Source: a virus
Lineage: Duplodnaviria; Caudoviricetes
Direction: 5' to 3' (one strand)
Virus record (IMG/VR): IMGVR_UViG_2788500220_000013
Coordinates: 32,001 to 96,000 of that record
Length of the DNA stretch: 64,000 nt
The notes under the pieces: generated by a model
Seen by the model: the letters and a program-made list of their open reading frames with translations, nothing else
The model's database searches: none
What the model was told of the DNA's origin: nothing
Translations under genes and position numbers: made by a program
Part shown: piece after piece, positions 30,550 through 60,759 of the stretch
Layout: each line of letters starts with the position of its first letter
Numbering within the stretch: the stretch's first letter is position 1

Positions 30550-31101
30550 CTAATCTTTTGTTAGATAACCTGCTTGAGCAATTACATATGCATCTGCGGC
30601 ATCGTAGCATCCTGGTTCTAAAATTGTTTGATTCTTTCTAGGCCCTGATTTTAGTGTCTTGGTCGGCCAGTTGAAGGCTACCCGTTCAGAAACCCATGTA
30701 TGTACCTGTTCCTTTGTAGGAGCCCCACCCTTAGACTTGCGGACAATCTTTAGGCCAACTAGCTTCCTTGCCGCGTTGACATTAATATATTCTGGTTCAA
30801 AATCAAATTGTTGTTGTACTAAATAACCCACTATCCCATTAAACCTGGCCAATGTTAGCAGGGTCTTTGCAGAAGATAAACCAGGTCGAAATGCTTGAAG
30901 GTTCTCCTCAATATAGGTTTTAGTTATATTATACGGCGCGGCTATAATAGACAGATGTTCTGATGCTTCTTGTGCCTTCTTAAAGAGGCCTATATGTTTA
31001 GACAGTGGTATATACCCCATCGCAACTAGTTGGCCCTTAGGGCCTAATACACACCACCCAATACATGATGTTGATATATCAAGGCCTAAAATATTATCCA
31101 C
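30550..31101 (-). CDS. ruvC: RuvC-like Holliday junction resolvase
   Basis: ILGLDISTSCIGW, YIEE, ARKLVG, KEQV, DAADAYVIA (RNase H fold acidic residues). GTG start overlaps the upstream TAG. Confidence 0.85.
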   Translation of the reverse strand: MDNILGLDISTSCIGWCVLGPKGQLVAMGYIPLSKHIGLFKKAQEASEHLSIIAAPYNITKTYIEENLQAFRPGLSSAKTLLTLARFNGIVGYLVQQQFDFEPEYINVNAARKLVGLKIVRKSKGGAPTKEQVHTWVSERVAFNWPTKTLKSGPRKNQTILEPGCYDAADAYVIAQAGYLTKD

Positions 31102-34100
31102 TAAAAATCTACCTTGACACGAAACACATACCCATCACTGTTTCTCTTAATAATAGGTCTAGCTAGGTTTGTTCTGGCTACAACATTCAAGTTTTCATCA
31201 TGAAAATTTAAACCGGTGATATAAACAAACTCTGATTCATTTTCACTGGCAAAATTTGATGCATATAATTTTTCAAACTGAGGGTTGGAGGAAGAGTTTA
31301 TTGTCCCTGCATCACAGGGAACATGGATCTCCATGATATGAATGTTTTGATCTCCTGCCATCTTTACCTCAAACTGTTCCTTACCATAATATGGTATAAC
31401 TGGAGATTTTATAACAGATATTCCTTCTTCATAAATTATACTACCTGCATCTGCCCACTTAGCGTGGGGTGTTTTAGCATCAGCACGATAAAGACCACCA
31501 ATCCCATTATCACGCATTCGAATTCTTACCTTACCATCAGAACCGGTAACATCAGAATCATATATTTCGTACGTGTTTGGTTGAATCGCATTTCCATAAA
31601 ATAAGTTTGATGCATCAAAAAACACAACTTCGTTCGACGACCCATCCCTAGTTCTCTGAAAAATTGTCAAAACAGAACCTGGTGCAATACCAGGATTTTC
31701 TGGAGAAGCACCCATAATTGCAGCCATGGTTCCAGATGCCTCTTCTGGTGTCCCTTCACCCAAGCTATCAACCTGAATAAGGCCTGGGTATAACGTTTCT
31801 TCAGGAATTAGGTTCGTCAAAGAAATCTTACTATAGTCTAAACTACCAAAATCGTTCGTATATTTCTCCGTTTCAGAACCAGAAACAGGGTGGGTTGTTA
31901 TTGAGCCAGAACTTAATAACCGAAACCCGGGAAAAAATAGACCGTTGTCACAAGGAAGTACAGTTAAATTACGCTTTCTAATTGATGACGTCGCAAACAA
32001 ATACTCATTCGCCTCAAGGGGAGTTTGCACCTGGACGTCTATCCTAGATGCAGTTAGATTTAGTAACCTCGGATAATCTTTTCTAACAAATTCTCTACAA
32101 AAATTCTCTAAATTTAATAAATGACCACCTACACCAAATGACATAGCAACATTAAATGGGTCATCCGTTGTTGTCGTCATATTTTGGAAAGGTGTTAATA
32201 AAACATCTCTTTCACGCGTTTCCTTAACAAAAAACGGAGGAACATAAAATAATAGACCATCACCCTGATTAATTGAAGATATTCCATACATCGATGATGT
32301 TACAACTTGTTCTAATGATCGATAATGATCCCATACCTTCAAATCATGAACTTCTGCATTTAAGGGATGATTAAAAGCGTATGTTCCATGTTCTAATGCA
32401 TCTAAACCAGAACCTACATTATCGCCATAAATTAGGCCCTCGGAGACTGATGTGGCTGAATCAAAGAAGCCACCAATATAGTGCTGGTTTGGCATCGCTG
32501 TCACATCTAGGTTATTTCTACCCTCATAAAAATTACCTATGAATACAGCACTAGGGTCACCTAGCTCCTCATCGAGATGTGTTATATGATTATCAAATTC
32601 CTGAGGAATTACTGAACCTGATTGGATTACAAACTCAGAATCAACTTTACCATCGATTACAAATGATCCGGTCCCGTTATTTACTGCATCGGTACCCCAG
32701 CGGATGGCAACATGATGCCAGTGATCCCTCTTTAATGAATTATCAGAAGATGCGAATATCAGGTCAGTAGGTGTCCCTTCACCTGTCATTGGATCATAGG
32801 GTTCAACCCCACCATACCCTGCAGTTATTAAATGCTCATTATTCTCTATAATATTTCCTGATCCATCATAAAGCGGAATTGTAGACGGAGGAACTTCGGC
32901 CGATGAGCTGAGTTGTAACATTATCCTGAATCCGTCTAGTTCTTCATCATAATTGCTCGTTGAGCTACCAGACACTAATGAAACTGTATAGCTGGATGAC
33001 ATATGGAAAATTGTCCCAGCTTTAAATTCAGGATATATAGGGCCGCCGAAGTCAAATCCTGAGTATAGTATAGCTTCTGATGGTAGGCCCAGATTTGTGT
33101 CACCTGGATCTATGGTAACATTACCGGCTGGGCCCAAGATATTTTGGGTTAAATGTATAACATTACCAATTCGATTGACAGTAATTGTATTAGTGCCCAT
33201 GTTACCATGGCCATTCACACTATTTATAGCTATTTCTACTTGTTCAGCAACATCGGTACAAGGCGGGAAAGCGCCTAAGGTGCCAATACCAATAAGGACA
33301 CCGGAAGCTGTAACATTACCAGTTGCAGACCAATGTACATCTTTATCAAAGTAATATACAATGCTGGTGCCATTAGAGTCTGTAATCGTGAACCCGTCCT
33401 CAGCTGGAACATCTGTGTCTAAGTCAGCAGCAACGGCCTGGCCGCCGCCATCATCAAAGATTGTGATTGTTGCAACAGCGGCAGTATTAGGTTCTTCATC
33501 ACGGATATAATACCTGGGATTAATATAAAAGTCAAATGTGAATCCCTCAGGAGGACTGTAGGGGATTACCTTTGGAACTTCCGTTGTAATTGCAGCTGCC
33601 GGATATATTAGCACAGAATCTGATGGGACGTTGGATGCCGTAAAAAAGTTTAAGCTATGATAGTTTGTCGTAGCCCAATGTAGCGAAGGGTACATACTTC
33701 TATAATATGGAAATAATATTTGCCTCGTAACATTTTTTCGGCTAGTGTCACTAGTAAATCTTACAGAAGGTTCAAACCTTAATACTTCTACTACTTTCTT
33801 TTTTCTTTCACTTGGCCCTGAGCTGTTTATTGATACGGGTGTTGTAGGAATACCAGTGTTCGGGTCTAGAGAGCCCATGTAATTATTTATAGAGCCAAAA
33901 ATATCTGTTACGCCCAAGTCTGATGCAGATATGACTAACTCACTTCTTATAGATTCTAAATTTTCATCCTCAAATATAGATGCAGCGTCGCTAAATGCGC
34001 GCAGTTTTTGGGCCTCTTTCTCTATAGGCGAACGTTGGGCAAAAACATGTACAGTACCTGTCATCCCAGATGGTTGACTGCTCTCTACTGATGCAGATAC

Positions 34101-34172
34101 AAATTCCCTTCTAGGATGAGTTGTTAATGATAGGTTTTCAAAATGATCTTTTGTTAGCTCAAATATAGCCAT
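31101..34172 (-). CDS. Baseplate/tail-associated structural protein with a LamG-like domain and tail-collar-like C-terminus (1023 aa)
   Basis: FTFDFYINP...WHHVAIRW...FVIDG...EVHDLKVWD (LamG pattern); C-terminal ITGLNFHDENLNVVARTNLARPIIK...FRVKVDF. Confidence 0.7.
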   Translation of the reverse strand: MAIFELTKDHFENLSLTTHPRREFVSASVESSQPSGMTGTVHVFAQRSPIEKEAQKLRAFSDAASIFEDENLESIRSELVISASDLGVTDIFGSINNYMGSLDPNTGIPTTPVSINSSGPSERKKKVVEVLRFEPSVRFTSDTSRKNVTRQILFPYYRSMYPSLHWATTNYHSLNFFTASNVPSDSVLIYPAAAITTEVPKVIPYSPPEGFTFDFYINPRYYIRDEEPNTAAVATITIFDDGGGQAVAADLDTDVPAEDGFTITDSNGTSIVYYFDKDVHWSATGNVTASGVLIGIGTLGAFPPCTDVAEQVEIAINSVNGHGNMGTNTITVNRIGNVIHLTQNILGPAGNVTIDPGDTNLGLPSEAILYSGFDFGGPIYPEFKAGTIFHMSSSYTVSLVSGSSTSNYDEELDGFRIMLQLSSSAEVPPSTIPLYDGSGNIIENNEHLITAGYGGVEPYDPMTGEGTPTDLIFASSDNSLKRDHWHHVAIRWGTDAVNNGTGSFVIDGKVDSEFVIQSGSVIPQEFDNHITHLDEELGDPSAVFIGNFYEGRNNLDVTAMPNQHYIGGFFDSATSVSEGLIYGDNVGSGLDALEHGTYAFNHPLNAEVHDLKVWDHYRSLEQVVTSSMYGISSINQGDGLLFYVPPFFVKETRERDVLLTPFQNMTTTTDDPFNVAMSFGVGGHLLNLENFCREFVRKDYPRLLNLTASRIDVQVQTPLEANEYLFATSSIRKRNLTVLPCDNGLFFPGFRLLSSGSITTHPVSGSETEKYTNDFGSLDYSKISLTNLIPEETLYPGLIQVDSLGEGTPEEASGTMAAIMGASPENPGIAPGSVLTIFQRTRDGSSNEVVFFDASNLFYGNAIQPNTYEIYDSDVTGSDGKVRIRMRDNGIGGLYRADAKTPHAKWADAGSIIYEEGISVIKSPVIPYYGKEQFEVKMAGDQNIHIMEIHVPCDAGTINSSSNPQFEKLYASNFASENESEFVYITGLNFHDENLNVVARTNLARPIIKRNSDGYVFRVKVDF

Positions 34173-34278: not shown

Positions 34279-35613
34279 CTAGAAATCAAGTCTAACTCGG
34301 ACGGTTATATCCTTTTCATCATTTTTTTCAATTGGGCGGGACATCTTCGCAACAGCTAAAAGATTATCATTCGCATCATATAGACCCACGGTAGTTGGAA
34401 ATGTAAATGATCTTTGCACATCCTCCTGACCTTCATCAATTACTGTGATTCTGTTGTCATCGTCCGTATAGGTTGGGTTGGCGGAATAATTAAACTCATC
34501 AGCAGTAGCCCTGCAAAATATTAGCGTAGAATTAATATTTGTAATATTTTGAAATGTTGCTGCAGTAAGTGTACCAGATTGAAATCTGCAAGATGCAAGG
34601 TGATCTACAATATTATCAATTGAGCCTGATATCATGAAATCTGGATAAAATGTGGGTGGCCCTAGGGCTGCACGCCAATCACCCATTTCTTCCTTACTAC
34701 CCATTACAATACTGCCACCGGGACAATCATCGACAGTATCCAGATCAGAGTCATAATCACCCTGGCGCATTGCATGAATTCTTCCCAGGCATGGTTGTTT
34801 AGGGGCCCAGATTTTATTTAGATCTAGAACAGCTATTCCTGCATCATAGAACATTAGGCCGACCGTGGTCTCTGTATCGCTGGCGTCAACGATGTCCGCG
34901 ACCTCACCACCGAATGTAACACGTTTTGCAGTTGCAGATCCGATGTCAGTATAGATTTGTACGCTACCTGTTGATGTAGTATGGATATTATCATGTACAT
35001 CTGTCATGGGGTTCATGGCGTCCAGACCAGTGGCAGCTTCGCCGTTGGCAACGCCCCCATAGTCAGGGTTAAGGTATGTATTACCAGCTAGAGTACCTGA
35101 TTGATAGAAACGAAGTGCAAACGTCTCCCGTTTGATTTTGTCTCTTGCAAATAGACGTTTAAATGACAGAAACATTGCTGCATCAATTTCTGCTGTTTCA
35201 TCTTTATTGCCAAAAGGAGTAGTAAATGCTGCATCTGCATCACCCAAAAGTGTTTGGGCAAATTGTTTATAGTTGTATGTCTTTTCTCTCATCATAAGAC
35301 TTTGAGATGTATAAAGCCTTTTATTTGATGAGTCAAGGCCGGTAGAAGCAGCAAGGACGGCTGGGCCCTCTGGCTTAAGGCCTACCGTCATATCGAAAAT
35401 TGCATTTGAACTTTGCAAAGTAAAGTCTTGATCATAAACAGTCTGAAACAAGGAAGATGTAACACCCGGGCCGATACCACCCGTCACGAATACTTCATAA
35501 TGTTTTCTAGTTACAGATCCAGAAACATCTTCTTGAATGATATCAACTAGTTGATTTAATGCTGACCTGCTAGTTTTTATATCAGCTGCTGAAATTTCTT
35601 TAAACGTTGCCAT
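34279..35613 (-). CDS. Baseplate/tail structural protein (444 aa) with tail-collar-like C-terminus
   Basis: EFNYSANPTY...TTVGLYDANDNLLAVAKMSRPIEK...VRVRLDF; C-terminus paralogous to the 1023-aa protein. Confidence 0.7.
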   Translation of the reverse strand: MATFKEISAADIKTSRSALNQLVDIIQEDVSGSVTRKHYEVFVTGGIGPGVTSSLFQTVYDQDFTLQSSNAIFDMTVGLKPEGPAVLAASTGLDSSNKRLYTSQSLMMREKTYNYKQFAQTLLGDADAAFTTPFGNKDETAEIDAAMFLSFKRLFARDKIKRETFALRFYQSGTLAGNTYLNPDYGGVANGEAATGLDAMNPMTDVHDNIHTTSTGSVQIYTDIGSATAKRVTFGGEVADIVDASDTETTVGLMFYDAGIAVLDLNKIWAPKQPCLGRIHAMRQGDYDSDLDTVDDCPGGSIVMGSKEEMGDWRAALGPPTFYPDFMISGSIDNIVDHLASCRFQSGTLTAATFQNITNINSTLIFCRATADEFNYSANPTYTDDDNRITVIDEGQEDVQRSFTFPTTVGLYDANDNLLAVAKMSRPIEKNDEKDITVRVRLDF

Positions 35614-36363: not shown

Positions 36364-38199
36364 TCATTTTCCTGTCCGTAAATCTTTAACATCAATACTG
36401 ACTATTTGGCTCTTTTGCCGGTCTGTATTTATAACTTGCAATTTGTAACGCCCTTCTGTGTCCTTTGTGCTTACTGACAGTAGCCCAAGATCATGATCCT
36501 GTTCATCTACAATTGATAAGTATTCCGGATCAAAGAATATGCTACATTTTTGGTGGCCACTATCTGTTATTGAATCAGATGTTAGGCTGACATCCCCTAT
36601 GCCAAGATTTGAATTCTGGATAAGATAAAAATTTGGATATGGCTTGGGAGCCCCTTCGGGGGATATCATTTTCTTTACCAGTCGGTTTGTATTGACATCA
36701 AATGTTACAAGAAATTGTTGCGAATAGTTTGAGCTAAAGTCATGTGCATCTATACTACATAAGGTATATATGTATTCTGACTCTTTTGTAAATTCATAAT
36801 CAACATATATTGTGGATGGCTCGTCCATTTCATGAACCCTTGATGACCTCGGCGTTTCTTTTCTTGGGTCAGGTATTTCGCTATCGTCAAAATCATATTC
36901 TGCTAATAGTTCATATGGATCGTTTACTGTCATTCGGCGAAAAACCTGAAATCTTTTTACATCGCGGGTTGAAGTAACAGGAAAACTCCACATCATCATC
37001 ATTTTTTTGTCTCTATAATCCCATATAAAATCTAGATCCTGGGGAGGAGGGGGAGGATTATATTCCCTACAAACAACATGAGATGATGGGCTCGGCCTAG
37101 ATGAAATTAAGCCAGTTGTAATATATGCCTGGCCGGTTTCTTCATTTAGGGCTTGAAATTGTACCATCGCGATTGCCCTAATAGAGTATCGATATGCCGA
37201 ACCATATTTTACTTTTGAATCAAGGGCTGATGAAACTGATGAGGCTGCAATTATAATCGGTCGGTGGCGGCGAACTCTTCGATCTGATGTATATTCTATT
37301 TTGTCTACCAGGTATCCAATAATCTTAACAGCATTTTTATACGTGCCGGCGCTAACAGGCTTTGTCATAATTGGCCGGAAGTTAGGTATAAATTCGTAGT
37401 CAGATATTACACCTGGATTACTTTGCAATCTTGCAGTCCGTTGTAGGTCTAGTGACTGTTTTGCCAAATTTGACAATTCACCAGCAAAAGGATTTGCAGG
37501 ATCCATTATAGATTTCTTTAATATAGATCCTAAAAACTTATCATTAAACTGTGAATAATGATTAACATTTGCCAGCTCCCTAGACCATGATGACCGATAT
37601 CGACGCCTCTGGCGTGTCCTAGTGGAGTATGAGTATACCCCTTGATCTGCTAGCTTTCCGGAAACTTTCATTATCCAGTTTCCGGCAACCCTCGAGGATG
37701 TTACACTGTTTAATAGCTTTGCAACATCTGCCCTTGAGTCCGGTAAGTCTTTTTTCTTTCCCTTTGTCTCAGACTGTGATCTTACTGCCACTGCCAAACC
37801 CATACTTCTAGAGGCCTTAGTTTCGATCTCCCTATCTTGAAGATTTAAAGAGGAATATCCCCTTGTTGCAACATCAGTTTCACTCTGGATTCTCCACATG
37901 TTTTTATGCAAAAGGCGGTGAACGTTTGAAGCGGTTGATATGTCAACTGCAAATTCATTATCAACAGACACATTGGATCTTACGTCAACAGTCTCAAACA
38001 TTAACCTAACATATCTGGGAACCTTTCTAGAAATTAATACTTCATTATTTTCATCGTATACGCCGAAAGCAACGGTGTTACCCCTATCATTTGTCTTTTC
38101 ATCTTTTTCAAAAAAATTATATTGAAATTCTGTTCTAAACTTTCGTACTTCCGGAACGTCTAAAACAGTCATAATTTTTGAAGGATATGATATTGTCAT
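36364..38199 (-). CDS. Hypothetical structural protein (611 aa) with Fn3/Ig-like segments and basic patches
   Basis: DSKVKYGSAYRYSIRAI, PPPPPQDL...W...FQVFRR...YIYTLCSID; TAATG-coupled. Confidence 0.7.
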   Translation of the reverse strand: MTISYPSKIMTVLDVPEVRKFRTEFQYNFFEKDEKTNDRGNTVAFGVYDENNEVLISRKVPRYVRLMFETVDVRSNVSVDNEFAVDISTASNVHRLLHKNMWRIQSETDVATRGYSSLNLQDREIETKASRSMGLAVAVRSQSETKGKKKDLPDSRADVAKLLNSVTSSRVAGNWIMKVSGKLADQGVYSYSTRTRQRRRYRSSWSRELANVNHYSQFNDKFLGSILKKSIMDPANPFAGELSNLAKQSLDLQRTARLQSNPGVISDYEFIPNFRPIMTKPVSAGTYKNAVKIIGYLVDKIEYTSDRRVRRHRPIIIAASSVSSALDSKVKYGSAYRYSIRAIAMVQFQALNEETGQAYITTGLISSRPSPSSHVVCREYNPPPPPQDLDFIWDYRDKKMMMMWSFPVTSTRDVKRFQVFRRMTVNDPYELLAEYDFDDSEIPDPRKETPRSSRVHEMDEPSTIYVDYEFTKESEYIYTLCSIDAHDFSSNYSQQFLVTFDVNTNRLVKKMISPEGAPKPYPNFYLIQNSNLGIGDVSLTSDSITDSGHQKCSIFFDPEYLSIVDEQDHDLGLLSVSTKDTEGRYKLQVINTDRQKSQIVSIDVKDLRTGK

Positions 38200-46261: not shown

Positions 46262-46280
46262 TTCCGTTATAAATTTTCAA

Positions 46281-47462: not shown

Positions 47463-47471
47463 TTTTTGATT

Positions 47472-47481: not shown

Positions 47482-47528
47482 TAATACAGAAAATAGTTAC
47501 TATATAAGTTCTATATCACATGCCCTTA

Positions 47529-50500: not shown

Positions 50501-53500
50501 GATGGGTTATTAGTAGTTCCGGATTACAAATATCTCCGGAGATGATGGCTGTGGCGCCGAAGACACAACCTGTATACCCTATTTCGGCAAAAGCTTTTAA
50601 CTGGCCAGTATCAAGGTCATCCAAGACTAGCTTTGTCTTTGCATTTGCAAATTCACTCCATTGAGTAGAATCTAAGGTCGTTCCGTACGTAGGATTTAAA
50701 ACATTTGGTAAATACCTGATCCTATCCGGCATTTCGAATGAACTGTCTCCCGGGCCGGGGATCATGAATACTTCAGCAGATGCGTCACAAATCACACTGG
50801 CGCAATCAACACCGAGGTCCTCGCCGACGGTATCATTCAAGTAGCAGTGTACATAACCAGCGTTATTCAGCCATAAGCTGTCTGGATCTGCACCAGGGAC
50901 ACTGGCTGCATGCTGATCATGAGTCCACCTTATTGGGCGGTGTGATCCAGTCACTGGCCAGTTTCCTGCAGTTGCTATAGGCCCAGGCCCGATGCCTTGA
51001 TCAATGCTATTTGAATTTGCAAATGGGCCCTTGTCGATTTTAAATGCGTACACACTCCAGTCACCCATTGCAGATGTTGACCCTACATCATTCCACCCTA
51101 TTGGATTAGGTTTGAGATTTGAATTTAAAAAGCCTGTTGACCCAACTTGGTCCATAAGAAAATCATCCAGCCACTCTGCAGAAGTTACCCGTTCACGTGG
51201 GCCCTGGAGAACGCCGTCAAACCTTACATTAAAATCTCCAGTTCTATAGTTAACAGCTCCTCCAAGAACTGCATCGCTAGTTGATGTTACAAGGCCGGAG
51301 CCACCAGACAAGTCAAACGAACCATCATGAGCAACAAGATCAACACCGCCACAAATACCGCACTCTGAGGACCCTGCACCGCCTTCAGCAGATATTCTGC
51401 TTTCATCTAGATATTCTAGCGAGGCTAAGCTAGGATATAGACTTGTAATCGGCCGATATGGTAGTGTCCACTGGGCGCCGGCGGGTTTGGTGGCGAAAAG
51501 ATTTTTCCCTTGATCTGTAAATGACCCGGTAGTTCCTTCAAAAAGTAATCTTGAAGACGTACAGTCTGGATCCGACTCAGGAGCTAATACACCAACCGGA
51601 TCCCCAAGTGCATTCACCTGGGAAGGGGCTATGGTTGCAGTTTTGTTCAAGTCGGGGGCAGTTATATATACACAATTTCTTGTTACATTGGAGTCAAGGC
51701 CGGTTTGTATATTATAATCGTGGAAAAATAATTCTGTAACTGATGGATAGGGGCCTATTTCTTGCATGTCGCCGGCAACAATATCATCTAGGTAATTCTC
51801 AGCATGGTATCCTAAATTATCGACATCAAATTGATCAACTACAGGAGTAGAATATTGTAATGCCTCATGAACTGCGTCCGTAGTTAATGGCTGGTTTAGT
51901 GAGTCATGTTTCTCTCTTTTGTCACTAACCAATGAACCATACAACGTTATTTTAATCTTCGAGGGATTGTTCGGGGTGGCGCCTGGGGCCAGGATCATAT
52001 GAGGCCCGGTATTATACATATCGGCAGATCTAGCAAACATATAAGGACAAGCAGCCTGAAACCCGAATACTAGTTTGTCACCTGGTAACAAGACATATGG
52101 GCTGTGTGGACGAAGTCTTTGTGAGGTTTTTGTTTCTATAAGACCTGTTGAAGCACTGTCATTAAATGATGACATCACCGTTCCCATATCCATTGTGCTG
52201 GATATAGGAGTAGTTCCAGGAGTAGCAGCATTAAATGCTCTTGCAGTTGATAGTTCATTCTCTAAGCCAGTTCTTACTCCAGTATGACTTGTCTGGAATG
52301 CCACTATACCAGTAACTGGGTCATTAAGCACCGGTTTTGTCCCTATTGCATATGCATGGCCATCCTGGAATCGGCCCGGGCGTTGGCATATACCTTTTAT
52401 AAAATGACGGCCAGCGACCATCATCTGGTCATCCCCGGTAGTCAGTGGGTCGCCACTTATATCTGATCCTGAAACTACTAGTTCTCTCTTAAGGCCTGTT
52501 TCTAATATATCATGTATATTATTAACTGAGTCTGGAATATCTGCATATCCTGTAACTTGGCCATAGGTTACCAACTCTCGAATAGTATCAACGTATTCAG
52601 TAGTATAATCATAACATGAAAGTGTTATAAAGTCATAATCATAATATTCAAGTAATGTTGGGGGATTAAACTCTTTTGAACTAGCGGATGGATCAAACAC
52701 CATATTCATAGGAACGGTGCCTGTATTTCCAGCTGGATCTTGACAGATGGTCTCAATCCAGTCTTTAATTTCTTCTAGTGTAGGATATCCCACTAGGGCG
52801 CCATTATTATCAAGATTAGTAACCTGGATTGTAAGGGTTGTACCCCCACTAATATCTGGGGCCCAATTGCCATCAATCTGTAGTGATCCACCTACTACTG
52901 GCATTGTCGTAAAGATAATGTTCCATGGGCCTGGAAAGGAAGAAGGTGCAGTATCAGGATAATCAGCACAGTCTACATCAATGGCTTCAAATGTTATAAT
53001 GTCTGATGTTGATGTTGCTTCGTATGTTGTGTCTGGAACGCCGGACCCATCTTCAATTCCCACTCTGGCGAAATCAGGAATTTGACCAGATAGATTAATG
53101 ACATCGCCATCTTCCCATGACGGATCATTTGGATTGGCACCCCCATCGGGAATATCAAGACCATAAACCTTGGTCTTAAATGAATAATCACCAGCCCAAG
53201 GTCTTTGATTTAAAATAAAGAAGTTATTAATAACGGCCTTATTATTCTTATACGTGTCGGTCTCGTTTGATATATTACCAGCAGCGTCGACGGAATACAT
53301 CACTGCGCGAGGATCGACGTCATCGCCTTCATACCATTCACTATCAAACTCTATTGTAAATTTCTCAAGTAAGAATGGTTTATTAATGACGGACGACATC
53401 TTAAACGTCTTACCATCTTGGGCTGCAAACTTAGGATGTGCGGGAAACCCAAAGTTAGATATTGGGCGGGATGACATCAATGAACCTGACTCTAATAATT

Positions 53501-54614
53501 CAAGGCCGCGTGAGAACCCAATACAACCGTCCCTCATAAAGTCTTCGCAATATGCCTTGTCATCTGCCCAGCCTCCGGCTGGTCCGGATGCACCATCAAT
53601 ATTAATACCGGTACCTTGTTTTTCCCATTGATTGGTCTCAAAGTTATAATAGACCATATTATGGAAACGAATACCTGGATTACTTCCATCTGCTGTAGAA
53701 TCATCAAGGCCGAAAGACGTTTCATTTTGACAATCCATCTCAATAACAATTTGTGTTTTGCTTTTAAGGGGACCTGAAAATCCTTCTAGATCTTTCTTGC
53801 TTACACCTTCATCAAAAAACTCATCATCATTTGAAAGCTTTAATAGGCTATCATCGAAAGCACCAAGATTTTCGCCTGGGGTAAATGTAAGTTCAACGTC
53901 TGCAATACCTTTTGGTGTTATTGCAACTGAGGTAAGATCCGATGGTAGGCTCGGTGATGCTATTCTATGATCAGTCCAGCTGGAATCTTCATGTAGCTTA
54001 GTTGGGTATCTTACAATATGGCCTGGTGATGGACTGACGAACGAACCGGTTATAGAAAATGCATCACCGGGAAGAAAACTTTGTGAATTTGATATCTCTA
54101 AATTCGTATTAGATGTTGCCGTTATCTCAGTAGAATATTCACCCGGTATTGAGTGCCTTAGTTCAATTCTATCTTTTTTTGCATATGCATGGATCTTTAA
54201 GCTAGATGAACTTATTTCTCGAGCAAATTCAGCATGAATAGATGATAAGTCAGGACAATCTCTAATGTCGACAACTATATTTCCCAGCTCAGATATTATG
54301 CCCCGTTGTGTTTCAAACGTTTCACTGTTGCCAAGGGAGTCAGTTAGTACTATTGTTGATGCATCACTTGGACGTTTGGTAAACTTTATCCATCCCGTTG
54401 AATAAGAACTATTAAAGATTATAGCACTAGTATCATCATATGTACTCTTGTGGGTCCCTAGTCTCCCAGATGGATTAGTCCTCATTACTGTGGGATAAGA
54501 GCCTGTAGCCGAATCCCAGGCCCGGAGGATGGTACGTGGTGGGTTATTTAAAACTCCGCTCCCAGTTACATACCCCCTAGAAGGACCACTACCTGTTAGA
54601 TATATTTTAGGCAT
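47529..54614 (-). CDS. Giant acidic multidomain virion protein (2361 aa), probably baseplate/fibre-associated
   Basis: Uninterrupted 7-kb ORF, G/S/T/D/P-rich beta pattern, located in the baseplate block, TAATG-coupled. Confidence 0.75.
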   Translation of the reverse strand: MPKIYLTGSGPSRGYVTGSGVLNNPPRTILRAWDSATGSYPTVMRTNPSGRLGTHKSTYDDTSAIIFNSSYSTGWIKFTKRPSDASTIVLTDSLGNSETFETQRGIISELGNIVVDIRDCPDLSSIHAEFAREISSSSLKIHAYAKKDRIELRHSIPGEYSTEITATSNTNLEISNSQSFLPGDAFSITGSFVSPSPGHIVRYPTKLHEDSSWTDHRIASPSLPSDLTSVAITPKGIADVELTFTPGENLGAFDDSLLKLSNDDEFFDEGVSKKDLEGFSGPLKSKTQIVIEMDCQNETSFGLDDSTADGSNPGIRFHNMVYYNFETNQWEKQGTGINIDGASGPAGGWADDKAYCEDFMRDGCIGFSRGLELLESGSLMSSRPISNFGFPAHPKFAAQDGKTFKMSSVINKPFLLEKFTIEFDSEWYEGDDVDPRAVMYSVDAAGNISNETDTYKNNKAVINNFFILNQRPWAGDYSFKTKVYGLDIPDGGANPNDPSWEDGDVINLSGQIPDFARVGIEDGSGVPDTTYEATSTSDIITFEAIDVDCADYPDTAPSSFPGPWNIIFTTMPVVGGSLQIDGNWAPDISGGTTLTIQVTNLDNNGALVGYPTLEEIKDWIETICQDPAGNTGTVPMNMVFDPSASSKEFNPPTLLEYYDYDFITLSCYDYTTEYVDTIRELVTYGQVTGYADIPDSVNNIHDILETGLKRELVVSGSDISGDPLTTGDDQMMVAGRHFIKGICQRPGRFQDGHAYAIGTKPVLNDPVTGIVAFQTSHTGVRTGLENELSTARAFNAATPGTTPISSTMDMGTVMSSFNDSASTGLIETKTSQRLRPHSPYVLLPGDKLVFGFQAACPYMFARSADMYNTGPHMILAPGATPNNPSKIKITLYGSLVSDKREKHDSLNQPLTTDAVHEALQYSTPVVDQFDVDNLGYHAENYLDDIVAGDMQEIGPYPSVTELFFHDYNIQTGLDSNVTRNCVYITAPDLNKTATIAPSQVNALGDPVGVLAPESDPDCTSSRLLFEGTTGSFTDQGKNLFATKPAGAQWTLPYRPITSLYPSLASLEYLDESRISAEGGAGSSECGICGGVDLVAHDGSFDLSGGSGLVTSTSDAVLGGAVNYRTGDFNVRFDGVLQGPRERVTSAEWLDDFLMDQVGSTGFLNSNLKPNPIGWNDVGSTSAMGDWSVYAFKIDKGPFANSNSIDQGIGPGPIATAGNWPVTGSHRPIRWTHDQHAASVPGADPDSLWLNNAGYVHCYLNDTVGEDLGVDCASVICDASAEVFMIPGPGDSSFEMPDRIRYLPNVLNPTYGTTLDSTQWSEFANAKTKLVLDDLDTGQLKAFAEIGYTGCVFGATAIISGDICNPELLITHPGVASFPATGQDFNGFGTLYNPFDPASTYYAESVGSFWNLGTRRIRVPLAAGCVTSPPISPGATLSTFFSGPQVTTWSREQQTKTIFYSLLAYQQTVAAAVASATSTAAANDLCTWFIPYDFKIINSTNDGLLDTIVFESWFAGDAGNVDPLFLATNFNNTSYQWSRSFRGTANDGSINYNEYTKCSSDWPGHATYFSSTEDNNGFTTSFIGGRDPYYVEVLDNFDHHFAPTKCIDYVDIVVRPSPDPEAVYYGDHNKNEYWDGTSLSDPALNNFTFRIYFNDFTNNYMSYIEDPALPPTTGGGGSGIIMADTGGTNAPNYDGGIHVTKHTWNSDNESVNTYSTMWDDTPLTANQLSKLVYTVLSNPQTRIRTENSADPYTPGATGWKQLGDIFAWHRLSFKSTGGQIKIFDEAGVLGDLSTDIEITAAYDSQTLSGHGLSDLITSKQLDPGDEYVQGITYFDRTRRVRYRASGSGFLPGLPGENIDIPYPGTQGSFSRNVKHISDSDRFYDTVTPSPSNYHKRNNKELMNFFGTHLAVGQPNPADNGPVVPEQTRITCGPESSILDGHSTLNDGYETSLEGCWFTIYDGDNRAYNIWYDIEGRGSIGIPPPAPSQPDGTLVKIEDITQGANKYEVAEKTAAAINALDEFIVEYEPGLEGSDSFLIRNTSTGAATDVTFPGVEGHLSLPDAALPPGYSPGPYIEFSPQFIQYGAPGGAGASEDGTGPQTDGGQVVNNTSTPWKAETLVQGISSYHTSMKDVVDDGWLGAYPFEKRYSGMLRTVFSEDETDWKSTPQLSLSNAPTGIYGSSDESLKFTTMFVTGSRTGLMPNPWGPSGPNYGAQGFISDTDGNIMFGDTQELDNNIYKFYFGSGNGWVHSPILSQSATWRYIPEIRGWKYGLISALPLNSNAVFRSDTFGQYRDMIEQRLDARLFITTGKSKNPVTAAPVTCKFINPAGDLLDPILTQAQNISSVFTSSLPYFDDGIPRNR

Positions 54615-55663
54615 TACTTAAGTAACCCCCCGAATGCTAGTGAATCAGTCCCAAGTTCATTGTTATTATAAGTAAAACCAGCACCTGATGATTTGTGGTC
54701 TCTGGCCAATAGGCTGTCAACGGACGATGGATGTGTAGAAGCAGTTGCACCGGAAACACGAGTAAACTCTGATTGTGCCATGTCTAACAATGCTTGTTGC
54801 ATTCCTCCGGGGTCATGAGCAACGGAGTCTGATACCTGAATTTTTTCATGAATCTCTTCCCAATCTGTTGACTCAATAAATGGGCTTATGGATGCATCAT
54901 TTAATGTTAGGTAACCTGGATGTACTGGACCGGTTTTTTCTTCACCATTTTGATATAACAGCTTTGCACCAAAATTTTCTATGCCATCCTCATACCAGTC
55001 AAATGATGTGTCCTTCATATCAATCATCTGCACAATTCTATTTGCCCGAAGACGTGAACACTCGCCGGCATCGGAAACTAATAAACCTCTAATGTCATGA
55101 CCAAAAAAAGGATTTTCAGGATTTTGGCGAGAAGCGCGTGACCTTACTGTAAGCGGTTCAATTACACCGTCAAACTGATCTGGGTCAGTCATCGATGCAT
55201 TCCATAAAATCAGCGGATACATTAATGTGTTATTGTCATCTAAAAGAAAGTGAACAGGATGAAATTTCTTCATATCCTCATAAGGTTCATCATCCTTAAA
55301 GAATTTTGGCTGGCCAAAGTCTCGACGCTCAACCTCATGATTAGGAACCAAGACAATTTGTTGACCAGCGTCGGTGAGCGGTGATGTTGTACTACCGCTA
55401 ACCCATGTGCCGTCCACATCTACAAACCCCTTATCATTTGATAGGGGGTTAATCATTTTAAGAGTAGGAGTAACCAATGAATCATCGAAGCATACTTCTT
55501 CTACACAATGAGAACCTTTCATAACCCTTTTAAAGTTTGATCCAGCAGAAAACTTCGGCACCATACCAGTCATTAGTTTATCCATTGTATTTACACTTAT
55601 ACCCTGGATGTATGGGATCACACTTTCATTTGAGCCTGAAATGGGCGTCATTGTAGATGCCAT
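54614..55663 (-). CDS. Hypothetical baseplate-region protein (349 aa)
   Basis: ORF abutting both neighbours. Confidence 0.75.
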   Translation of the reverse strand: MASTMTPISGSNESVIPYIQGISVNTMDKLMTGMVPKFSAGSNFKRVMKGSHCVEEVCFDDSLVTPTLKMINPLSNDKGFVDVDGTWVSGSTTSPLTDAGQQIVLVPNHEVERRDFGQPKFFKDDEPYEDMKKFHPVHFLLDDNNTLMYPLILWNASMTDPDQFDGVIEPLTVRSRASRQNPENPFFGHDIRGLLVSDAGECSRLRANRIVQMIDMKDTSFDWYEDGIENFGAKLLYQNGEEKTGPVHPGYLTLNDASISPFIESTDWEEIHEKIQVSDSVAHDPGGMQQALLDMAQSEFTRVSGATASTHPSSVDSLLARDHKSSGAGFTYNNNELGTDSLAFGGLLK

Positions 55664-58600
55664 TTAGTATCTCCCCATTTTTGCAATATATTGTTGCAAT
55701 GTAATTGTCCCTTTAAGGCCATGGCGATTATTCTCACCCAAATATACATCTTCGTATGAATATTTAAACTTTGCTCTTTCTAACATGTGTGACTCAATTA
55801 TAAAGTTCATTCCTAAAAACTTGGTTTTCTTAGGTATTAAATCTTCAATTATTAGACCGATTGAATTATCAAACCACTTAAAAAACTCAAAGAATGACGT
55901 AATATTAATTTTATCAGTAAGCCTATTAAAATAAACTTCTCTAAGATTTTTAAGATCTGGATATTCTGTTGCAAATAATAGCTCAGGGGCACCAAGAATA
56001 TTATCTAAAGAATCTAGAGTTGAAAAAATCTTAATAATATCCTCATTTAATGCTTGCACTGACGACATGTCTATTGCAAATCGTGTATCATCTTGAGGGC
56101 GCTCAGATGGAAGAATCTCATAAACTGGGGCAACTTCGGCACCAAACTCAGTTACATTATCAAAATTTAGAAAACTTCGTATACGAACTTTATTTGTAAC
56201 TGAGTGTTCATCAAACTTCGGATCCAACATACCTTTATAGATCCTTTCAGGCTTAATAATTCTTGTTTCTGGCTCAAATCCAGTAGCTAATATATGAAAC
56301 CCAGATTGGCTATAATCAAATATGTCTAAGTTACCTATATTATCCGTGGTATGGTGTGCCTGGTGGGCGGAAACATCTAATCGCAGCTTTTCGAAAGATC
56401 CTGTTGGCGTTATGGTAAAATTAAAATTTGTTAAAGGGTCTTCGACACCAAGGGAAGCATAATTCCTTATATGCTCAGTGATATCAACAGTACTTAAAGC
56501 CTTAGACCAAAACCTAATTTGTGCAACTTGACCAGCAAATTGTGTAGTCCTTGATGCATCATCTGCAATTGGATTAAGTCCCCAGTACGCGGATGCTACC
56601 GTATCATCAATCTGCTGGTTGCCTATTACAATACATGACCCAGATGCATTTAGTGCAGGATCTATCACTGACCATCTATTATCACGACTGGGGTCAATAG
56701 TCTCTTTGAATAAAGATGATGTAGTCTTATGTTCAATAATATCACCATAATTTTGCCTTGCAGCAGATAGATAATACGAAGAACTTACATATGAATTGAT
56801 AGAGTCATTTCGGCTTCTACCGAAGCATATATGCCATATATTTCCATCAAATATATCAATATCTGAAATTGTTAATTGTAAATAGTCATCTGCAGGGTCT
56901 AGTCCGGGCCGGGAATAAAGATCAAGCGTCTTAGCATCAGGGTCAGCAACAAGGTTTGTAATAACTGCAGGAACTATTTCATCAGATCCTGTTGCATGCA
57001 ACCTAACTAAACTTTGAGGTTGAAGAGAAGGTGTTTTTATAGGGTCAAACTTATAGATTGCCTCATATGACCAAGAACCTGATGTAAATAGACCATCATT
57101 AGGATCTGTTGATATTCCATGCAACCCATATGGGCCACCGTCTGGGCCTGTTGATGCGTCAATAAAGGTCCCGGCCGGGGGTGGATAACCTACTTCAGTA
57201 CGTGAGCCAGATAAAAATGGAGACATAAAGAACGGCTGATTCAATGGAATACCCTGGGTATCAACTGGCATACTAGTATTGGGGGCTATAGATCCTGAAA
57301 AATCTGTCATAGCTGTAACTTCAGAAACAGCCTTCCTAATATCTGATAGGTCTTTTGTCTTAGACCCTCCATACTCTCTAAATCTAAAATATTTATCTGG
57401 GTTAACCCCCATCGAACGCATTAGCACCTTAAGGCTATGTACAGTACCTTTTGATCGAATAATCTCATTTACATTTGTCAATATTCGGCGCCACAGCTGG
57501 TTTTGTACATATTGTAAAGTATGCTCGCTTATTGACAGATCCGGACCAAGATTTAATCCCTCGAATAACTGTTCTATAGAGGCACCCTCAAATGGAGAGG
57601 GTAGCTCAATTCCATGATGTTCAGCTAACATTGGTAAGAATTGATCTGCTACAACATCTGTCCCCGTGTAATCAACATGCAAAAGATTTGAAATATGATC
57701 TAGAAACATTTTTGTTTCATCAAAAAATCTTGCCCAGGTAAAGAGAAGTGAAGCTAACAGTTGCGCTGAACCAAGTTTACCATAGCCAGGCACCGCATCA
57801 GTACCTGAATAACTGTAGTCGTCTCCTACATCTCCAAACTCAGTATCAAACCCTTCTGCCAATTGAGACTCGAGTAGATAATGCTTTGGAACTAGTTTGG
57901 TAATTAAGTTTGGATTATTCGAATCATAGTTAATTGCAGAAGCCAATAACTCCTTGTTTAATGTTATGACATCAGAATGCGAAGGAAATAAATTCGGTGA
58001 ATATACAGAAGATTCTAGTACCAAAGGTGTCTGTACTACATCACCGTTAGTATCAATAATTTTTGTTGGATCCCTATTATCAATATGATAATTTGTAATA
58101 CGAGCATGTAATGAGTTTCCAGAACTATCTAATACTACGTCATTTGAAACAAAATCGCCAGAGGGTTCATTAAATTTGAAGTACGTCTTTAAGTCGCCAC
58201 TAAAATTTGAAAATACTGTTCTATCTAGGTATTTTTTAAGTTGACCAGTACTACGAACTGAGTGCCAAGCCCTGAATTCGTCAATAGAACCTGATAGTGT
58301 TTGTAAGGGCGTAATAGTATCATGGATTGATCCAGTGCCAATAGTTAATGGTGCCGTTACAAATTCCGGAGATAATTTACCCATTTGTAAACTATTTGAT
58401 GTGCTAGCCAGTTCTGCATTTTGAAACAGTTTTAGATTATGTTCTCCAGAACTACGATCTAGCGTACCACAAATATGAACAAACTCCCCCTTAGGAATTT
58501 CCATATCTGTCTCTATAGAATTTGACCCAGATGCTGCCAACATTTTTACTTCGACTGTTGTACTTGCAGCTAGGGAAGGCATTAAGGCGATAGTCAGGCC

Positions 58601-59224
58601 ATCAGCAACAGGGATATCTGAACCATCTATTTTTTGAACTAATATCTGCGTTTCAGTATCGGTACCTTGATCTGGGACTAATAAATGCATCTCAAAAGAT
58701 ATAGACTTATTTGCCATAGGGTCTAGTACCGACTCGCCGGTATTGATCTTAGATAATGATGGGAAAAGTGCACCAGCATGATCAATGACAGATATATGTG
58801 ACCCGAGATTCTCATCATAACCGAAGGCGGGGGTTTCGTCAACAACAGTACCAGAAAAATGAAGAAATCCAACATTTTTTGGAAATCTATCATAAACATG
58901 TTTTTCAAATCCTGTTAGCTCATCAAAAAATGTTTCTAGCTCGTCCTTTGTGCCATCGAATGGATAACCATTAATGATAACATCAAATGCTGTATTCGTC
59001 TTAGCTTCTGCTGAATTAAAGAATGTATGATTCTCAAACTGTGACCAATCAACTGGCAACTGTTGTGTTGATTTGAGCCCGGACCCAGGCGGATCAAATC
59101 TAAATGAATTCTCAGCGCCGATAGTCGTGCCTGATAAATGTGACGCAGCGATGGGGCTAGTCTGTACAGATTTATGAGTAAGCTTACGAACAAATGAAGG
59201 CTTAAATAATCTATTTGATGCCAT
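55664..59224 (-). CDS. Baseplate wedge protein: P2 gpI / T4 gp7-like core flanked by two LamG-like domains (1186 aa)
   Basis: FLPMLAEHHGIEL...LWRRILTNVNEIIRSKGTVHSLKVLMRSMGV (Tail_P2_I-like); LamG-like ends GSIDEFRAWH and GQVAQIRFWSKAL. Confidence 0.72.
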   Translation of the reverse strand: MASNRLFKPSFVRKLTHKSVQTSPIAASHLSGTTIGAENSFRFDPPGSGLKSTQQLPVDWSQFENHTFFNSAEAKTNTAFDVIINGYPFDGTKDELETFFDELTGFEKHVYDRFPKNVGFLHFSGTVVDETPAFGYDENLGSHISVIDHAGALFPSLSKINTGESVLDPMANKSISFEMHLLVPDQGTDTETQILVQKIDGSDIPVADGLTIALMPSLAASTTVEVKMLAASGSNSIETDMEIPKGEFVHICGTLDRSSGEHNLKLFQNAELASTSNSLQMGKLSPEFVTAPLTIGTGSIHDTITPLQTLSGSIDEFRAWHSVRSTGQLKKYLDRTVFSNFSGDLKTYFKFNEPSGDFVSNDVVLDSSGNSLHARITNYHIDNRDPTKIIDTNGDVVQTPLVLESSVYSPNLFPSHSDVITLNKELLASAINYDSNNPNLITKLVPKHYLLESQLAEGFDTEFGDVGDDYSYSGTDAVPGYGKLGSAQLLASLLFTWARFFDETKMFLDHISNLLHVDYTGTDVVADQFLPMLAEHHGIELPSPFEGASIEQLFEGLNLGPDLSISEHTLQYVQNQLWRRILTNVNEIIRSKGTVHSLKVLMRSMGVNPDKYFRFREYGGSKTKDLSDIRKAVSEVTAMTDFSGSIAPNTSMPVDTQGIPLNQPFFMSPFLSGSRTEVGYPPPAGTFIDASTGPDGGPYGLHGISTDPNDGLFTSGSWSYEAIYKFDPIKTPSLQPQSLVRLHATGSDEIVPAVITNLVADPDAKTLDLYSRPGLDPADDYLQLTISDIDIFDGNIWHICFGRSRNDSINSYVSSSYYLSAARQNYGDIIEHKTTSSLFKETIDPSRDNRWSVIDPALNASGSCIVIGNQQIDDTVASAYWGLNPIADDASRTTQFAGQVAQIRFWSKALSTVDITEHIRNYASLGVEDPLTNFNFTITPTGSFEKLRLDVSAHQAHHTTDNIGNLDIFDYSQSGFHILATGFEPETRIIKPERIYKGMLDPKFDEHSVTNKVRIRSFLNFDNVTEFGAEVAPVYEILPSERPQDDTRFAIDMSSVQALNEDIIKIFSTLDSLDNILGAPELLFATEYPDLKNLREVYFNRLTDKINITSFFEFFKWFDNSIGLIIEDLIPKKTKFLGMNFIIESHMLERAKFKYSYEDVYLGENNRHGLKGTITLQQYIAKMGRY

Positions 59225-59226
59225 TA

Positions 59227-60759
59227 TTACTCCACCCTAAATTGGGCCCCTGAATCTTCTATAATATACTCTACATCTCTGTCTAACACAAGATAATCTA
59301 CTGTATATGATCGGCCGGAAGGGAGGGCACTCATATAAAAATCAAAAAACATTCCATCAACATCAGATGATACCCTTGTCCCATTGTTCTCTTGCTTGAA
59401 TGGTACTATAACATCCCCAGTTAATACATCTTTTATCCTATAATAAACCTCATTTAAAATAATACTATCTAAACTAACAGGAAGTTTTGTGGCTTTTCTT
59501 TCGACCTCTAAATCACGAGCAAACAATCTAAATCTGGTTTTATCAGAGGTGTGATATTTTTCCCTGATATTTGTTGTAACCAAGTCTAAACGGCGTGAAG
59601 ATGAAGAAAATGCAGTTCTAAATGGTGATTGTATCTTTAAAGATCCAGTATGATAACATATACTGTTATCAGTTGACCTCCAATATTCATCAAATGTAAT
59701 TGATCCGCTAGCCAAAACAAAATCCTGGATCGTGTCTTCAGGATTTACATTAGTAGAATCAGTTGTGTCGATTGCGAATGAGGCAGTATATACCCCATCA
59801 ACAGAATTCTCACCAATCATTAACTGAGATACATCTACTGTTTTTGTAAAAGATCCTGTAACGATATCTACCTTCATACATGATGCCCCAGAGAGCCCTA
59901 AAGAATTGCCGGCTAGAATATTTGCTCCAGCTCCATAATGATAATTCTTTAAAAATAAAGATCCCGTTAAGTCAAAATAAAAGTTTTTATGATTATCTTG
60001 GTTGCTATTATCCCATGAAACCTCAATGCGGGGCCTGTTTCGTGAAGTACTAACATGGCGTGAGGCAAAGCGTTTAACAAACCTAGTTTTATTATCTGTT
60101 TCTTGAGAACCTGAAAATGATAGCCTGAATCCATGATTGGGAATCAGGCCGGCCATTGAGGCGGAGACAATTGTGGTTATATCCAGAACCAGATTTTCTG
60201 TTCCATTAACAAAATGTTGAGTTACAAACAGGTCTTGAATACCTGAACCATCATTTAAGTTTCCGGATGAAATAATATCAATATCATTTGAGCCCAATAA
60301 TCCCTGGGCGTTGGCACCAGTGGTATGCCATTCGACAGCAGAAGAATTTGAAATCGATGATGTTACCCAGTTTGAAACATCTAAGTCATTAAATGATAAA
60401 ACATCTTTTCCAGAACCTTCATCAAATGATTTTGCTAATGGAAATAATATAATAGTAAAATCTACGGGTACTGCCTGGCCTCCCATAATATCAGACATAT
60501 GTAATTTACACTCGAAAGAATCATCATTTAAGTCTAAAATAGATGATGTTAACTCTTGTAGGCCTTCATAATCAAATTTCAATAATATTCTAGATAGTTC
60601 CTGTGGCTCTGTCTCTCCATCTATTACTGATTCATCATGTAGTTTAAATAAATCTAACGTACCGGCCATCCCAACATTTGCATCCGACGTACGAAACTTA
60701 TTATTCATAATTTTGTTAGTTATATACGTGTCTTTATCTGGGTCTAAAATAAAAAACAT
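59227..60759 (-). CDS. DNRLRE-like domain structural protein (510 aa)
   Basis: KDTYI...SRILLKFD...LVLDITTIV...NHGFRL...FASR...RPRIEVSW pattern. Confidence 0.6.
   Translation of the reverse strand: MFFILDPDKDTYITNKIMNNKFRTSDANVGMAGTLDLFKLHDESVIDGETEPQELSRILLKFDYEGLQELTSSILDLNDDSFECKLHMSDIMGGQAVPVDFTIILFPLAKSFDEGSGKDVLSFNDLDVSNWVTSSISNSSAVEWHTTGANAQGLLGSNDIDIISSGNLNDGSGIQDLFVTQHFVNGTENLVLDITTIVSASMAGLIPNHGFRLSFSGSQETDNKTRFVKRFASRHVSTSRNRPRIEVSWDNSNQDNHKNFYFDLTGSLFLKNYHYGAGANILAGNSLGLSGASCMKVDIVTGSFTKTVDVSQLMIGENSVDGVYTASFAIDTTDSTNVNPEDTIQDFVLASGSITFDEYWRSTDNSICYHTGSLKIQSPFRTAFSSSSRRLDLVTTNIREKYHTSDKTRFRLFARDLEVERKATKLPVSLDSIILNEVYYRIKDVLTGDVIVPFKQENNGTRVSSDVDGMFFDFYMSALPSGRSYTVDYLVLDRDVEYIIEDSGAQFRVE

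Follow-up and report, generated by a model that had tools for sequence, protein, structure and literature searches.

We analyzed a 64,000-nt stretch of phage DNA, hereafter the window, for the occurrence of the tripeptide [ST]GS (Ser or Thr, then Gly, then Ser) in virion proteins and for the enzymes that might act on it. The window covers positions 32,001 to 96,000 of IMG/VR record IMGVR_UViG_2788500220_000013 (G000:C13:32001-96000); the contig, C13, is 108.9 kb long with 40% G+C and belongs to a 33-contig, 4.9-Mb assembly. Every gene of the window lies on the minus strand, and matches to PHROG and Pfam identified a structural module of the distant T4-like type, which also includes a series of large proteins without annotation. 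An earlier reading of this DNA (the original prediction) had proposed that [ST]-[GA]-S is a dispersed sequon in outer virion proteins, read by a glycosyltransferase (GT) of family 2 with TPR repeats (GT2-TPR) that is encoded among them. The genes concerned are as follows (lengths in amino acids, aa; AF2, AlphaFold2).

3533-7084 and 7134-10286 (span 3533-10286), minus strand, two oversized sheath paralogues of 1183 and 1050 aa (PHROG/Pfam)
12433-13629, minus strand, neck or head-tail adaptor protein, gp13-like (PHROG/Pfam)
31101-34172, minus strand, 1023-aa protein
34279-35613, minus strand, 444-aa protein
45295-46248, minus strand, 317-aa protein
46281-47462, minus strand, GT2 glycosyltransferase with a TPR-like C-terminal part (PF00535, phrog_13126)
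47529-54614, minus strand, 2361-aa fibre-like protein
54614-55663, minus strand, 349-aa protein
55664-59224, minus strand, 1186-aa protein with LamG/pentraxin-like jelly-rolls (Laminin_G_3, E = 8e-13; AF2)
59227-60759, minus strand, 510-aa all-beta baseplate-peripheral protein (beta-sandwich chain by AF2)

The six proteins of 510, 1186, 349, 2361, 1023 and 444 aa, 5873 aa in all, contained 35 [ST]GS tripeptides, while composition-preserving shuffles gave 7.8 +/- 2.8 with a maximum of 21, so that none of 5000 shuffles reached the observed number. The excess was found in each of the six: 5 versus 0.7 expected in the 510-aa protein, 9 versus 1.3 in the 1186-aa, 2 versus 0.4 in the 349-aa, 10 versus 3.7 in the 2361-aa (3 of them within residues 1-40), 6 versus 1.4 in the 1023-aa and 3 versus 0.4 in the 444-aa protein. 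Permuted controls in the same proteins were flat (GS[ST], 7 versus 8.0 expected; G[ST]S, 6 versus 7.9; [ST]SG, 7 versus 8.0). When all 8000 tripeptides were ranked, SGS came first (19 versus 4.3, P = 1.4e-7) and TGS second (16 versus 3.7, P = 1.6e-6); since this unbiased scan placed the two on top, the post-hoc choice of the motif is of no concern. The composition-based expectation was well calibrated, as the remaining contigs of the assembly mostly lay near 1.0-1.2 (range 0-1.8). These results confirmed that the [ST]GS excess is real and order-specific. Outside the six proteins, the neck protein had 3 motifs, all within its variable N-terminal third, and the two sheaths had 2 and 4, only in their inserted middle domains; the 317-aa protein had none in this phage. 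The per-protein counts of the original prediction, including those for the neck and the sheaths, were therefore exact, and the enrichment that it reported outlasted the correction for composition.

The original prediction had also described a set of motif-poor proteins; these and some further proteins belong to the following genes.

13799-15664, minus strand, capsid protein (MCP; PHROG/Pfam)
minus strand, portal, large terminase and a fused SbcC-like nuclease (PHROG/Pfam)
36364-45292, minus strand, trio of 882, 1481 and 611 aa, probably internal or ejected virion proteins
60773-62623, minus strand, gp6-like inner baseplate wedge (PHROG/Pfam)

A control set of the MCP, portal, gp6-like, SbcC-like, 323-, 882- and 611-aa proteins had 2 motifs in 4807 aa versus 3.5 expected. 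Within the window these proteins are thus not significantly depleted. The MCP had 1 motif versus 0.8 expected, the gp6-like wedge had none, and the trio had 1 motif in its 2974 aa.

The motifs were encoded by all 4 Gly codons and by 5 of the 6 Ser codons, with GGA-TCN in 13 of the 35. The signal therefore lies, and is selected, at the protein level, and this diversity of codons ruled out a DNA-level cause. Low-complexity Gly/Ser linkers were also ruled out, the contexts being hydrophobic and inside confidently folded domains.

The excess recurred in related phages. The syntenic relative G001 (IMG/VR UViG_3300008954_000067; 40-80% identity) had 34 motifs versus 9.4 expected in the six orthologues, with most sites common to both phages; its orthologue of the 1023-aa protein had 7 versus 1.1 expected and conserved 4 of the 6 sites. 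In the N-terminal region of the 2361-aa protein TGS occurs at positions 7, 17 and 37, and only position 37 is kept in G001. We then considered 80 further viral contigs with a homologue of the 1186-aa protein (36-59% identity). All 80 were enriched, with observed-to-expected ratios of 2.3-9.3x over the homologues of the 510-, 1186-, 349-, 2361- and 317-aa proteins. By family the ratio was 6.3x for the 510-aa, 5.8x for the 1186-aa, 4.9x for the 317-aa, 3.7x for the 349-aa and 3.6x for the 2361-aa protein. The gp6-like, 162-, 882- and 1481-aa families were motif-poor at 0.05-0.31x (882-aa, 1 versus 19.8 expected; 1481-aa, 2 versus 8.6; gp6-like, 11 versus 34.9). The 882/1481/611-aa trio has a low Gly content and is almost motif-free, and so are its families. 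A search for loci related to the 1023-aa protein gave none.

Searching with the sheath gave another set of 80 loci, which covered the sheath, neck and tube families. The sheath families stood at 3.1-3.9x overall, and their inserted middle domains, at 3.9-4.7x, held almost all of the excess. The N-terminal 100 aa of the sheath were at 0.5-0.7x in both families; the C-terminal core was at 0.47x in the 1050-aa family but at 1.9x in the 1183-aa paralogue. The neck family reached 8.2x, concentrated at 20-40% of its length, that is, in the variable N-terminal third, while the tube family had no motif versus 2.3 expected. Homology with T4 gp18 places the core of the sheath against the tube and its inserts on the outside. 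Since the sheath excess lies in the inserts, the description of the marked regions as outer virion surfaces is supported. Together, the counts support an excess limited to outward-facing parts (the sheath inserts, the variable third of the neck, the baseplate rim and the fibres), which is in agreement with the surfaces named in the original prediction; the tube, the gp6-like wedge and the trio, whose proteins are basic, are without it. We also considered whether the low counts in inner proteins reflect avoidance of a sequon, and dropped this idea because the T4 structural proteins are equally low (1 versus 7.8 expected without the fibres).

The nearest capsid proteins, 37-42% identical, were those of uncultured LR756508, Microcystis phage Mel-JY01, Flavobacterium phage immuto and Rhodothermus phage RM378, so that, judged by the capsid protein, there is no close cultured phage. 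A DNA search of the phage collection with this phage gave no match, nor did a search of cultured phages with the 1186-aa protein. The cultured phages listed above nevertheless showed the excess. The whole immuto genome had 111 motifs versus 44 expected, with 26 versus 5.9 (P = 1e-9) in a 1053-aa protein of the baseplate/fibre block, 12 versus 1.3 in a 373-aa protein and 7 versus 1.3 in the sheath. Mel-JY01 had 145 versus 56 genome-wide (718-aa protein, 9 versus 0.6; 1336-aa protein, 11 versus 1.4), and RM378 had 45 versus 18, strongest in a block at 66-76 kb. The baseplate/fibre blocks were enriched in all three, the sheath too in immuto and Mel-JY01, and the homologues of the 444-aa protein in the same two. 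In T4, the baseplate rim, fibres, whiskers and Hoc together had 7 motifs versus 8.8 expected (0.79x), that is, no excess. A whole clade of distant T4-like phages, of the RM378/immuto/Mel-JY01 kind and including these jumbo phages of ~320 kb, carries the tripeptide as a conserved mark of its virion surfaces.

We analyzed which residues the motif tolerates. Among X-G-Z combinations family-wide, SGS (5.0x) and TGS (4.9x) stood out; SGT (2.7x), AGT (2.5x), KGT (2.2x) and TGT (1.9x) were lower, and a few unrelated combinations, FGR and YGQ among them, were at about 2x. NGS (0.7x) and DGS (1.1x) were not raised. The original prediction had reported many [ST]AS variants; in the window these were only weakly raised (10 versus 5.8 expected), while family-wide they reached 2.25x and the motif does generalise to [ST]-[GA]-S. 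In recurrent columns the alternatives to [ST]GS were SGT/TGT (165 cases), [ST]SS (50), SGA (49) and [ST]AS (48), and at recurrent sites the middle Gly was replaced by Ala or Ser 98 times and by Asn or Asp twice. Per site, position 1 was Ser/Thr in about 90-100% of homologues, position 2 was Gly in 80-100% at most sites, and position 3 was Ser, then Thr, then Ala; the residue that follows was a conserved F, W, L or I. The general form is thus [ST]-[G>A,S]-[S>T>A] and then a large hydrophobic residue. Conservation of the hydroxyl was 0.89 for the motif Ser/Thr versus 0.47 for other Ser/Thr of the same protein (P = 2e-7). The requirement at the motif looks chemical rather than conformational.

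In the 1186-aa protein, all 9 sites kept the generalised motif in 82-100% of homologues, while sites found in only 1-2 sequences occurred at about the chance frequency. The excess therefore resides in old, conserved sites, and high site turnover, which we had considered as evidence of a shield, was dropped. The motifs stood in 815 non-redundant sequence contexts with weak flank preferences. An hhalign comparison of the 510- and 1186-aa families gave a probability of 0.1%, that is, no detectable homology between them. Paralogous repeats or one shared domain are supported by neither result.

The structural context was assessed in AF2 models of two proteins, the 510-aa (predicted local distance difference test score, pLDDT, 88) and the 1186-aa (pLDDT 77.5). 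Both were modelled as beta-sandwich chains, the 510-aa protein with CBM-like domains and the 1186-aa protein with LamG/pentraxin-like jelly-rolls. In these models 13 of the 14 motif sites abut the end of a beta-strand, and the 14th lies in a low-confidence loop. The 13 comprise 2 two-residue G-S hairpins, 5 sites just before a strand, 4 just after one (2 of which start a short helix) and 2 inside a strand. As modelled, the motif sits at beta-strand ends of lectin-like and Ig-like domains that face outward.

Two sets of glycosyltransferase genes were candidates for acting on the motif. The first lies just beyond the window on the same strand.

C13 99295-106513 (locus L207:5295-12513), pair of family 4 glycosyltransferases (GT4) and sugar cluster

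The two GT4 genes (C13 99,295-101,720) adjoin the baseplate hub genes and are followed by a UDP-glucose/GDP-mannose dehydrogenase, a PD-(D/E)XK nuclease, a GDP-mannose 4,6-dehydratase and two epimerase/reductases. Of the 41 relatives with enough flank, 39 have the pair in synteny with the baseplate hub genes, and its identity among relatives, 54-61%, is above that of the baseplate proteins themselves. GT4a and GT4b both keep the invariant EX7E motif, and the best full-length solved match of GT4b was the chlorovirus glycosyltransferase B736L. The clade conserves the pair but not the sugar genes, which vary; in immuto and Mel-JY01 the pair again stands beside a PD-(D/E)XK nuclease and a different sugar cassette. 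Homologues of GT4b in the phage collection were found only in immuto, LR756508, Mel-JY01 and RM378, which are also the phages nearest by capsid protein. The database phages with the pair (immuto, Mel-JY01 and RM378) all show the excess, and T4 has neither.

The second candidate is the embedded GT2-TPR. It matched PF00535 over residues 15-103 with 41.9 bits (cut-off 23.3; E = 1.3e-10) and phrog_13126 with E = 5.8e-26, and the Atlas clusters to which it belongs are named SunS family and TPR-containing GT. Its closest solved structures, over residues 14-303, were GmaR (E = 6.7e-7), SunS (E = 3e-5) and 7msk (E = 5.6e-5); its FIDADE aligns, as the DxD motif, with IDADE of GmaR and IDADN of SunS. 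The TPR part was weak: TPR_17 scored 16.5 bits (E = 0.01) where the cut-off is 24.4, and residues 198-243 matched a designed TPR protein of the PDB at E = 6.7e-4. Of the GT2 enzyme with TPR repeats in the original prediction, the GT2 domain was thus well founded and the repeats less so. The products of SunS are S-linked glycocins, and the substrate of GmaR is flagellin. The embedded enzyme resembles them in its GT-A domain, the aligned IDAD(E/N) and a putative helical-repeat C-terminal part, and it is probably protein-directed. It differs from them in its low identity and in a TPR signal under the Pfam cut-off, and its gene does not co-vary with the motif.

None of the 28 relatives that cover the syntenic site has the GT2-TPR gene there; after the fibre gene comes either the 317-aa gene immediately or a set of additional fibre/spike genes. 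The slot at 45295-47529 is variable: seven loci (L121, L123, L137, L139, L158, L171 and L009) hold endosialidase-like, Peptidase_S74(-chaperone), CBM_X2 or collagen-repeat open reading frames (ORFs) there, and this phage and G001 hold GT2-TPR. No other modifying enzyme was found in the slot of the relatives, whose ORFs were fibre- or spike-like. A six-frame search found no GT2-TPR homologue on the contigs of 31 of 32 relatives, including three 86-93% complete genomes of ~320 kb, and the enrichment was equal or stronger in relatives without the gene. The 79 other viral loci with GT2-TPR homologues, many of them from giant-virus bins, had no such excess near the gene (motif ratio 1.5, one ORF at P<1e-3) and no shared structural genes. 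The co-occurrence of enrichment and GT2-TPR across related phages that the original prediction called for therefore failed in both directions. We therefore regard it as a mobile accessory in a variable fibre-gene slot, confined to the lineage of this phage and G001. By its distribution it is a recent lineage-specific insertion that does not read the motif; the GT4 pair is the better candidate enzyme.

The reading that we favor, which in our estimate falls just short of an even chance, is that [ST]GS marks the acceptor sites of a clade-wide system of virion O-glycosylation. The first Ser/Thr of the motif would accept the sugar from soluble glycosyltransferases of the phage, acting in the cytoplasm before the virion is assembled or while it is. 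At the core of the system would stand the conserved GT4 pair, which lies beside a variable sugar-nucleotide cassette, represented here by the GDP-mannose dehydratase, the epimerases/reductases and the UDP-glucose/GDP-mannose dehydrogenase. GT2-TPR would be a lineage-specific accessory that may extend or diversify the glycan or modify a neighbouring fibre. Several observations led us to prefer an acceptor. Position 1 is hydroxyl-specific, with no substitution by Asn or Asp, and the middle residue is small and not of the positive-phi kind; one tripeptide occurs in several local structures across unrelated outward-facing proteins; and T4 lacks the excess, while the clade has core glycosyltransferases and sugar pathways. 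A fuller version, which we put forward somewhat more tentatively, is that [S/T]-G-[S/T] at exposed strand ends is a true sequon, read on folded domains by the soluble GT4 pair, so that a glycan made by the phage would coat all outward-facing parts of the virion. Lineages would then differ in their glycan through exchangeable sugar-nucleotide cassettes and accessory transferases, GT2-TPR among them, giving a serotype-like glycocalyx common to phages of Bacteroidota, cyanobacteria and Rhodothermus.

Several observations weigh against glycosylation. The sites are positionally very conserved, their Gly is often invariant, and they lie at strand ends with a buried hydrophobic neighbour, as a structural turn would look. 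The apparent depletion in inner proteins is no sign of avoidance, since T4 structural proteins are as low. Cyanophage S-RSM4, which has no GT4 pair, is at about 2x, only in its giant fibre proteins, and some host beta-rich surface proteins reach about 3x, also without the pair. The phages positive for both motif and GT4 pair all belong to one clade, so that the co-occurrence is phylogenetically confounded, and no lineage that had lost the pair turned up among the phages examined.

The strongest alternative, quite possible although we consider it the less probable, is that [ST]-G-[ST] plus a hydrophobic residue is simply the tight turn or strand cap that this clade favours in its beta-sandwich decoration domains, and that it is left unmodified. 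The placement of 13 of 14 sites at strand ends, among them two classic two-residue G-S hairpins, is what such a turn would give. So are a Gly that is 80-100% conserved at most sites with a conserved F/W/L/I next to it, a generalised motif kept in 82-100% of homologues, and singletons no commoner than chance. Like contexts in a 1689-aa host surface protein and the roughly 2x of the S-RSM4 fibres point the same way. Against this alternative, the T4 baseplate, fibre, Hoc and sheath proteins have no excess (0.79x). Asn and Asp interchange with Ser and Thr in Asx/ST-turns, and with Gly at positive-phi positions. Here they replace neither position 1 nor position 2, while Gly gives way to Ala or Ser. 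At least five different local structures (hairpin, helix N-cap, and sites before, after and within a strand) use the one tripeptide, and proteins without homology to each other have it in common throughout the virion. Should the motif prove to be structural, it is still an unusually specific signature of the decoration domains of the clade.

We considered it unlikely that the motif serves some other role, such as a different modification (phosphorylation, for instance, or acylation), a loop of the lectin-like domains that binds a ligand or ion, or a site recognised by an assembly factor, with the GT4 pair acting on DNA, lipid or host polysaccharide. Conserved hydroxyls in carbohydrate-binding-like folds would fit such a role, and a PD-(D/E)XK nuclease stands beside the pair in four lineages; DNA is a known target of phage glycosyltransferases (PMC12619734). 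Neither a kinase nor another candidate enzyme turned up in the block, however, and the cassettes resemble pathways for complex glycans. In addition, a ThyA-type hydroxymethylase was absent from G008, G025 and Mel-JY01, three genomes that all carry the GT4 pair, which argues against hydroxymethylpyrimidine (hm-pyrimidine) DNA as its target.

The model of the original prediction, in which GT2-TPR reads [ST]-[GA]-S and adds sugars to the outer virion proteins encoded around it, draws on solved relatives that are protein or peptide glycosyltransferases (GmaR and SunS, with the DxD aligned) and on a gene that lies on the late-gene strand within the structural block, but it is very improbable and largely refuted as a general explanation, since the gene is missing at the site in 28 of 28 and on the contigs in 31 of 32 relatives, all with the excess equal or stronger, the slot there holds fibre/spike genes, and the 79 homologue loci stand at a ratio of only 1.5.

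We compared the glycosylation that we favor with known systems. To our knowledge, phage enzymes have so far been shown to glycosylate virions only in some actinobacteriophages, and there without a sequon. In mycobacteriophage virions, phage-encoded glycosyltransferases put glycans on the C-termini of capsid and tail-tube subunits (Freeman et al. 2023, as described in PMC12619734). The likeness lies in the phage's own glycosyltransferases; the targets proposed here would likewise be exposed virion proteins, and a glycan coat is presumed. In that account no dispersed sequon is known, whereas here the candidate sites are internal triads, dozens of them, in sheath inserts, neck, baseplate and fibres. 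The capsid and tube, where acceptors of the mycobacteriophage type would lie, were not enriched, with 1 motif versus 0.8 expected and (as a family) 0 versus 2.3.

The BAHT heptosyltransferases AAH and TibC act on autotransporter beta-helices, and the eukaryotic POFUT, POGLUT and EOGT act on EGF/TSR hairpins. They offer a parallel, which we take as a lead only, in that a soluble enzyme modifies Ser/Thr in a short inter-strand loop of a folded domain, often near Gly. The enzyme families are unrelated to these phage enzymes, not being GT4, and we know of none of this type from phages. GtfA/GtfB, the two-protein O-GlcNAc transferase that primes serine-rich-repeat adhesins, are alike in being two adjacent GT-B genes with Ser-small-Ser acceptor motifs. 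They are unlike in that GtfB is non-catalytic, whereas both phage GT4s have EX7E, and in that their substrates are long disordered Ser repeats whereas the motifs here are in folded domains; the best PDB match of GT4b, moreover, is B736L and not GtfA.

A literature search found no paper describing such a motif. The "moraphages", aquatic jumbo phages of Flavobacteriia, have four core glycosyltransferase groups, with the target unassigned and no motif reported (PMC12619734, 2025). The phages studied here are similarly large, aquatic and predicted to infect Bacteroidota, with an RM378-related capsid protein and glycosyltransferases in the core genome, and this phage may be a moraphage. If [ST]GS is indeed a dispersed, conserved acceptor in a widespread aquatic T4-like clade, glycosites would be predictable from sequence, and the retention of glycosyltransferase pairs and sugar pathways in the core genome would be accounted for. 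Glycan coats would then be a general means by which large phages mask, stabilise or stick their particles. With three cultured members of the clade (immuto, Mel-JY01 and RM378), the idea is directly testable.

A few other ORFs rich in the motif were found elsewhere. On a host contig (G000:C14:1327004-1332073, minus strand), the 1689-aa ORF had 15 [ST]GS where 5 were expected. Their contexts resemble those of the phage (e.g. IV-SGS-INST and MV-SGS-ATLHL), and the ORF could encode a surface adhesin or the fibre of a prophage. A 610-aa ORF at G000:C23:7623-9455, on a contig of 46% G+C, had 5 versus 0.8 expected, and several small contigs of the bin with 43-46% G+C may come from another phage or be other parts of this one. 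In the near-complete relative G008 (G008:C1:230833-235780), a 733-aa ORF with 9 versus 2.6 expected adjoins a 250-aa and a 651-aa GT2 gene, well away from the baseplate block. Within the window, the 323-aa protein at 29510-30481, which the original prediction took for SbcD, matched phrog_47 "DNA primase" with E = 7e-37, and the 1052-aa ORF beside its gene carried both metallophosphoesterase and SbcC-like signals.

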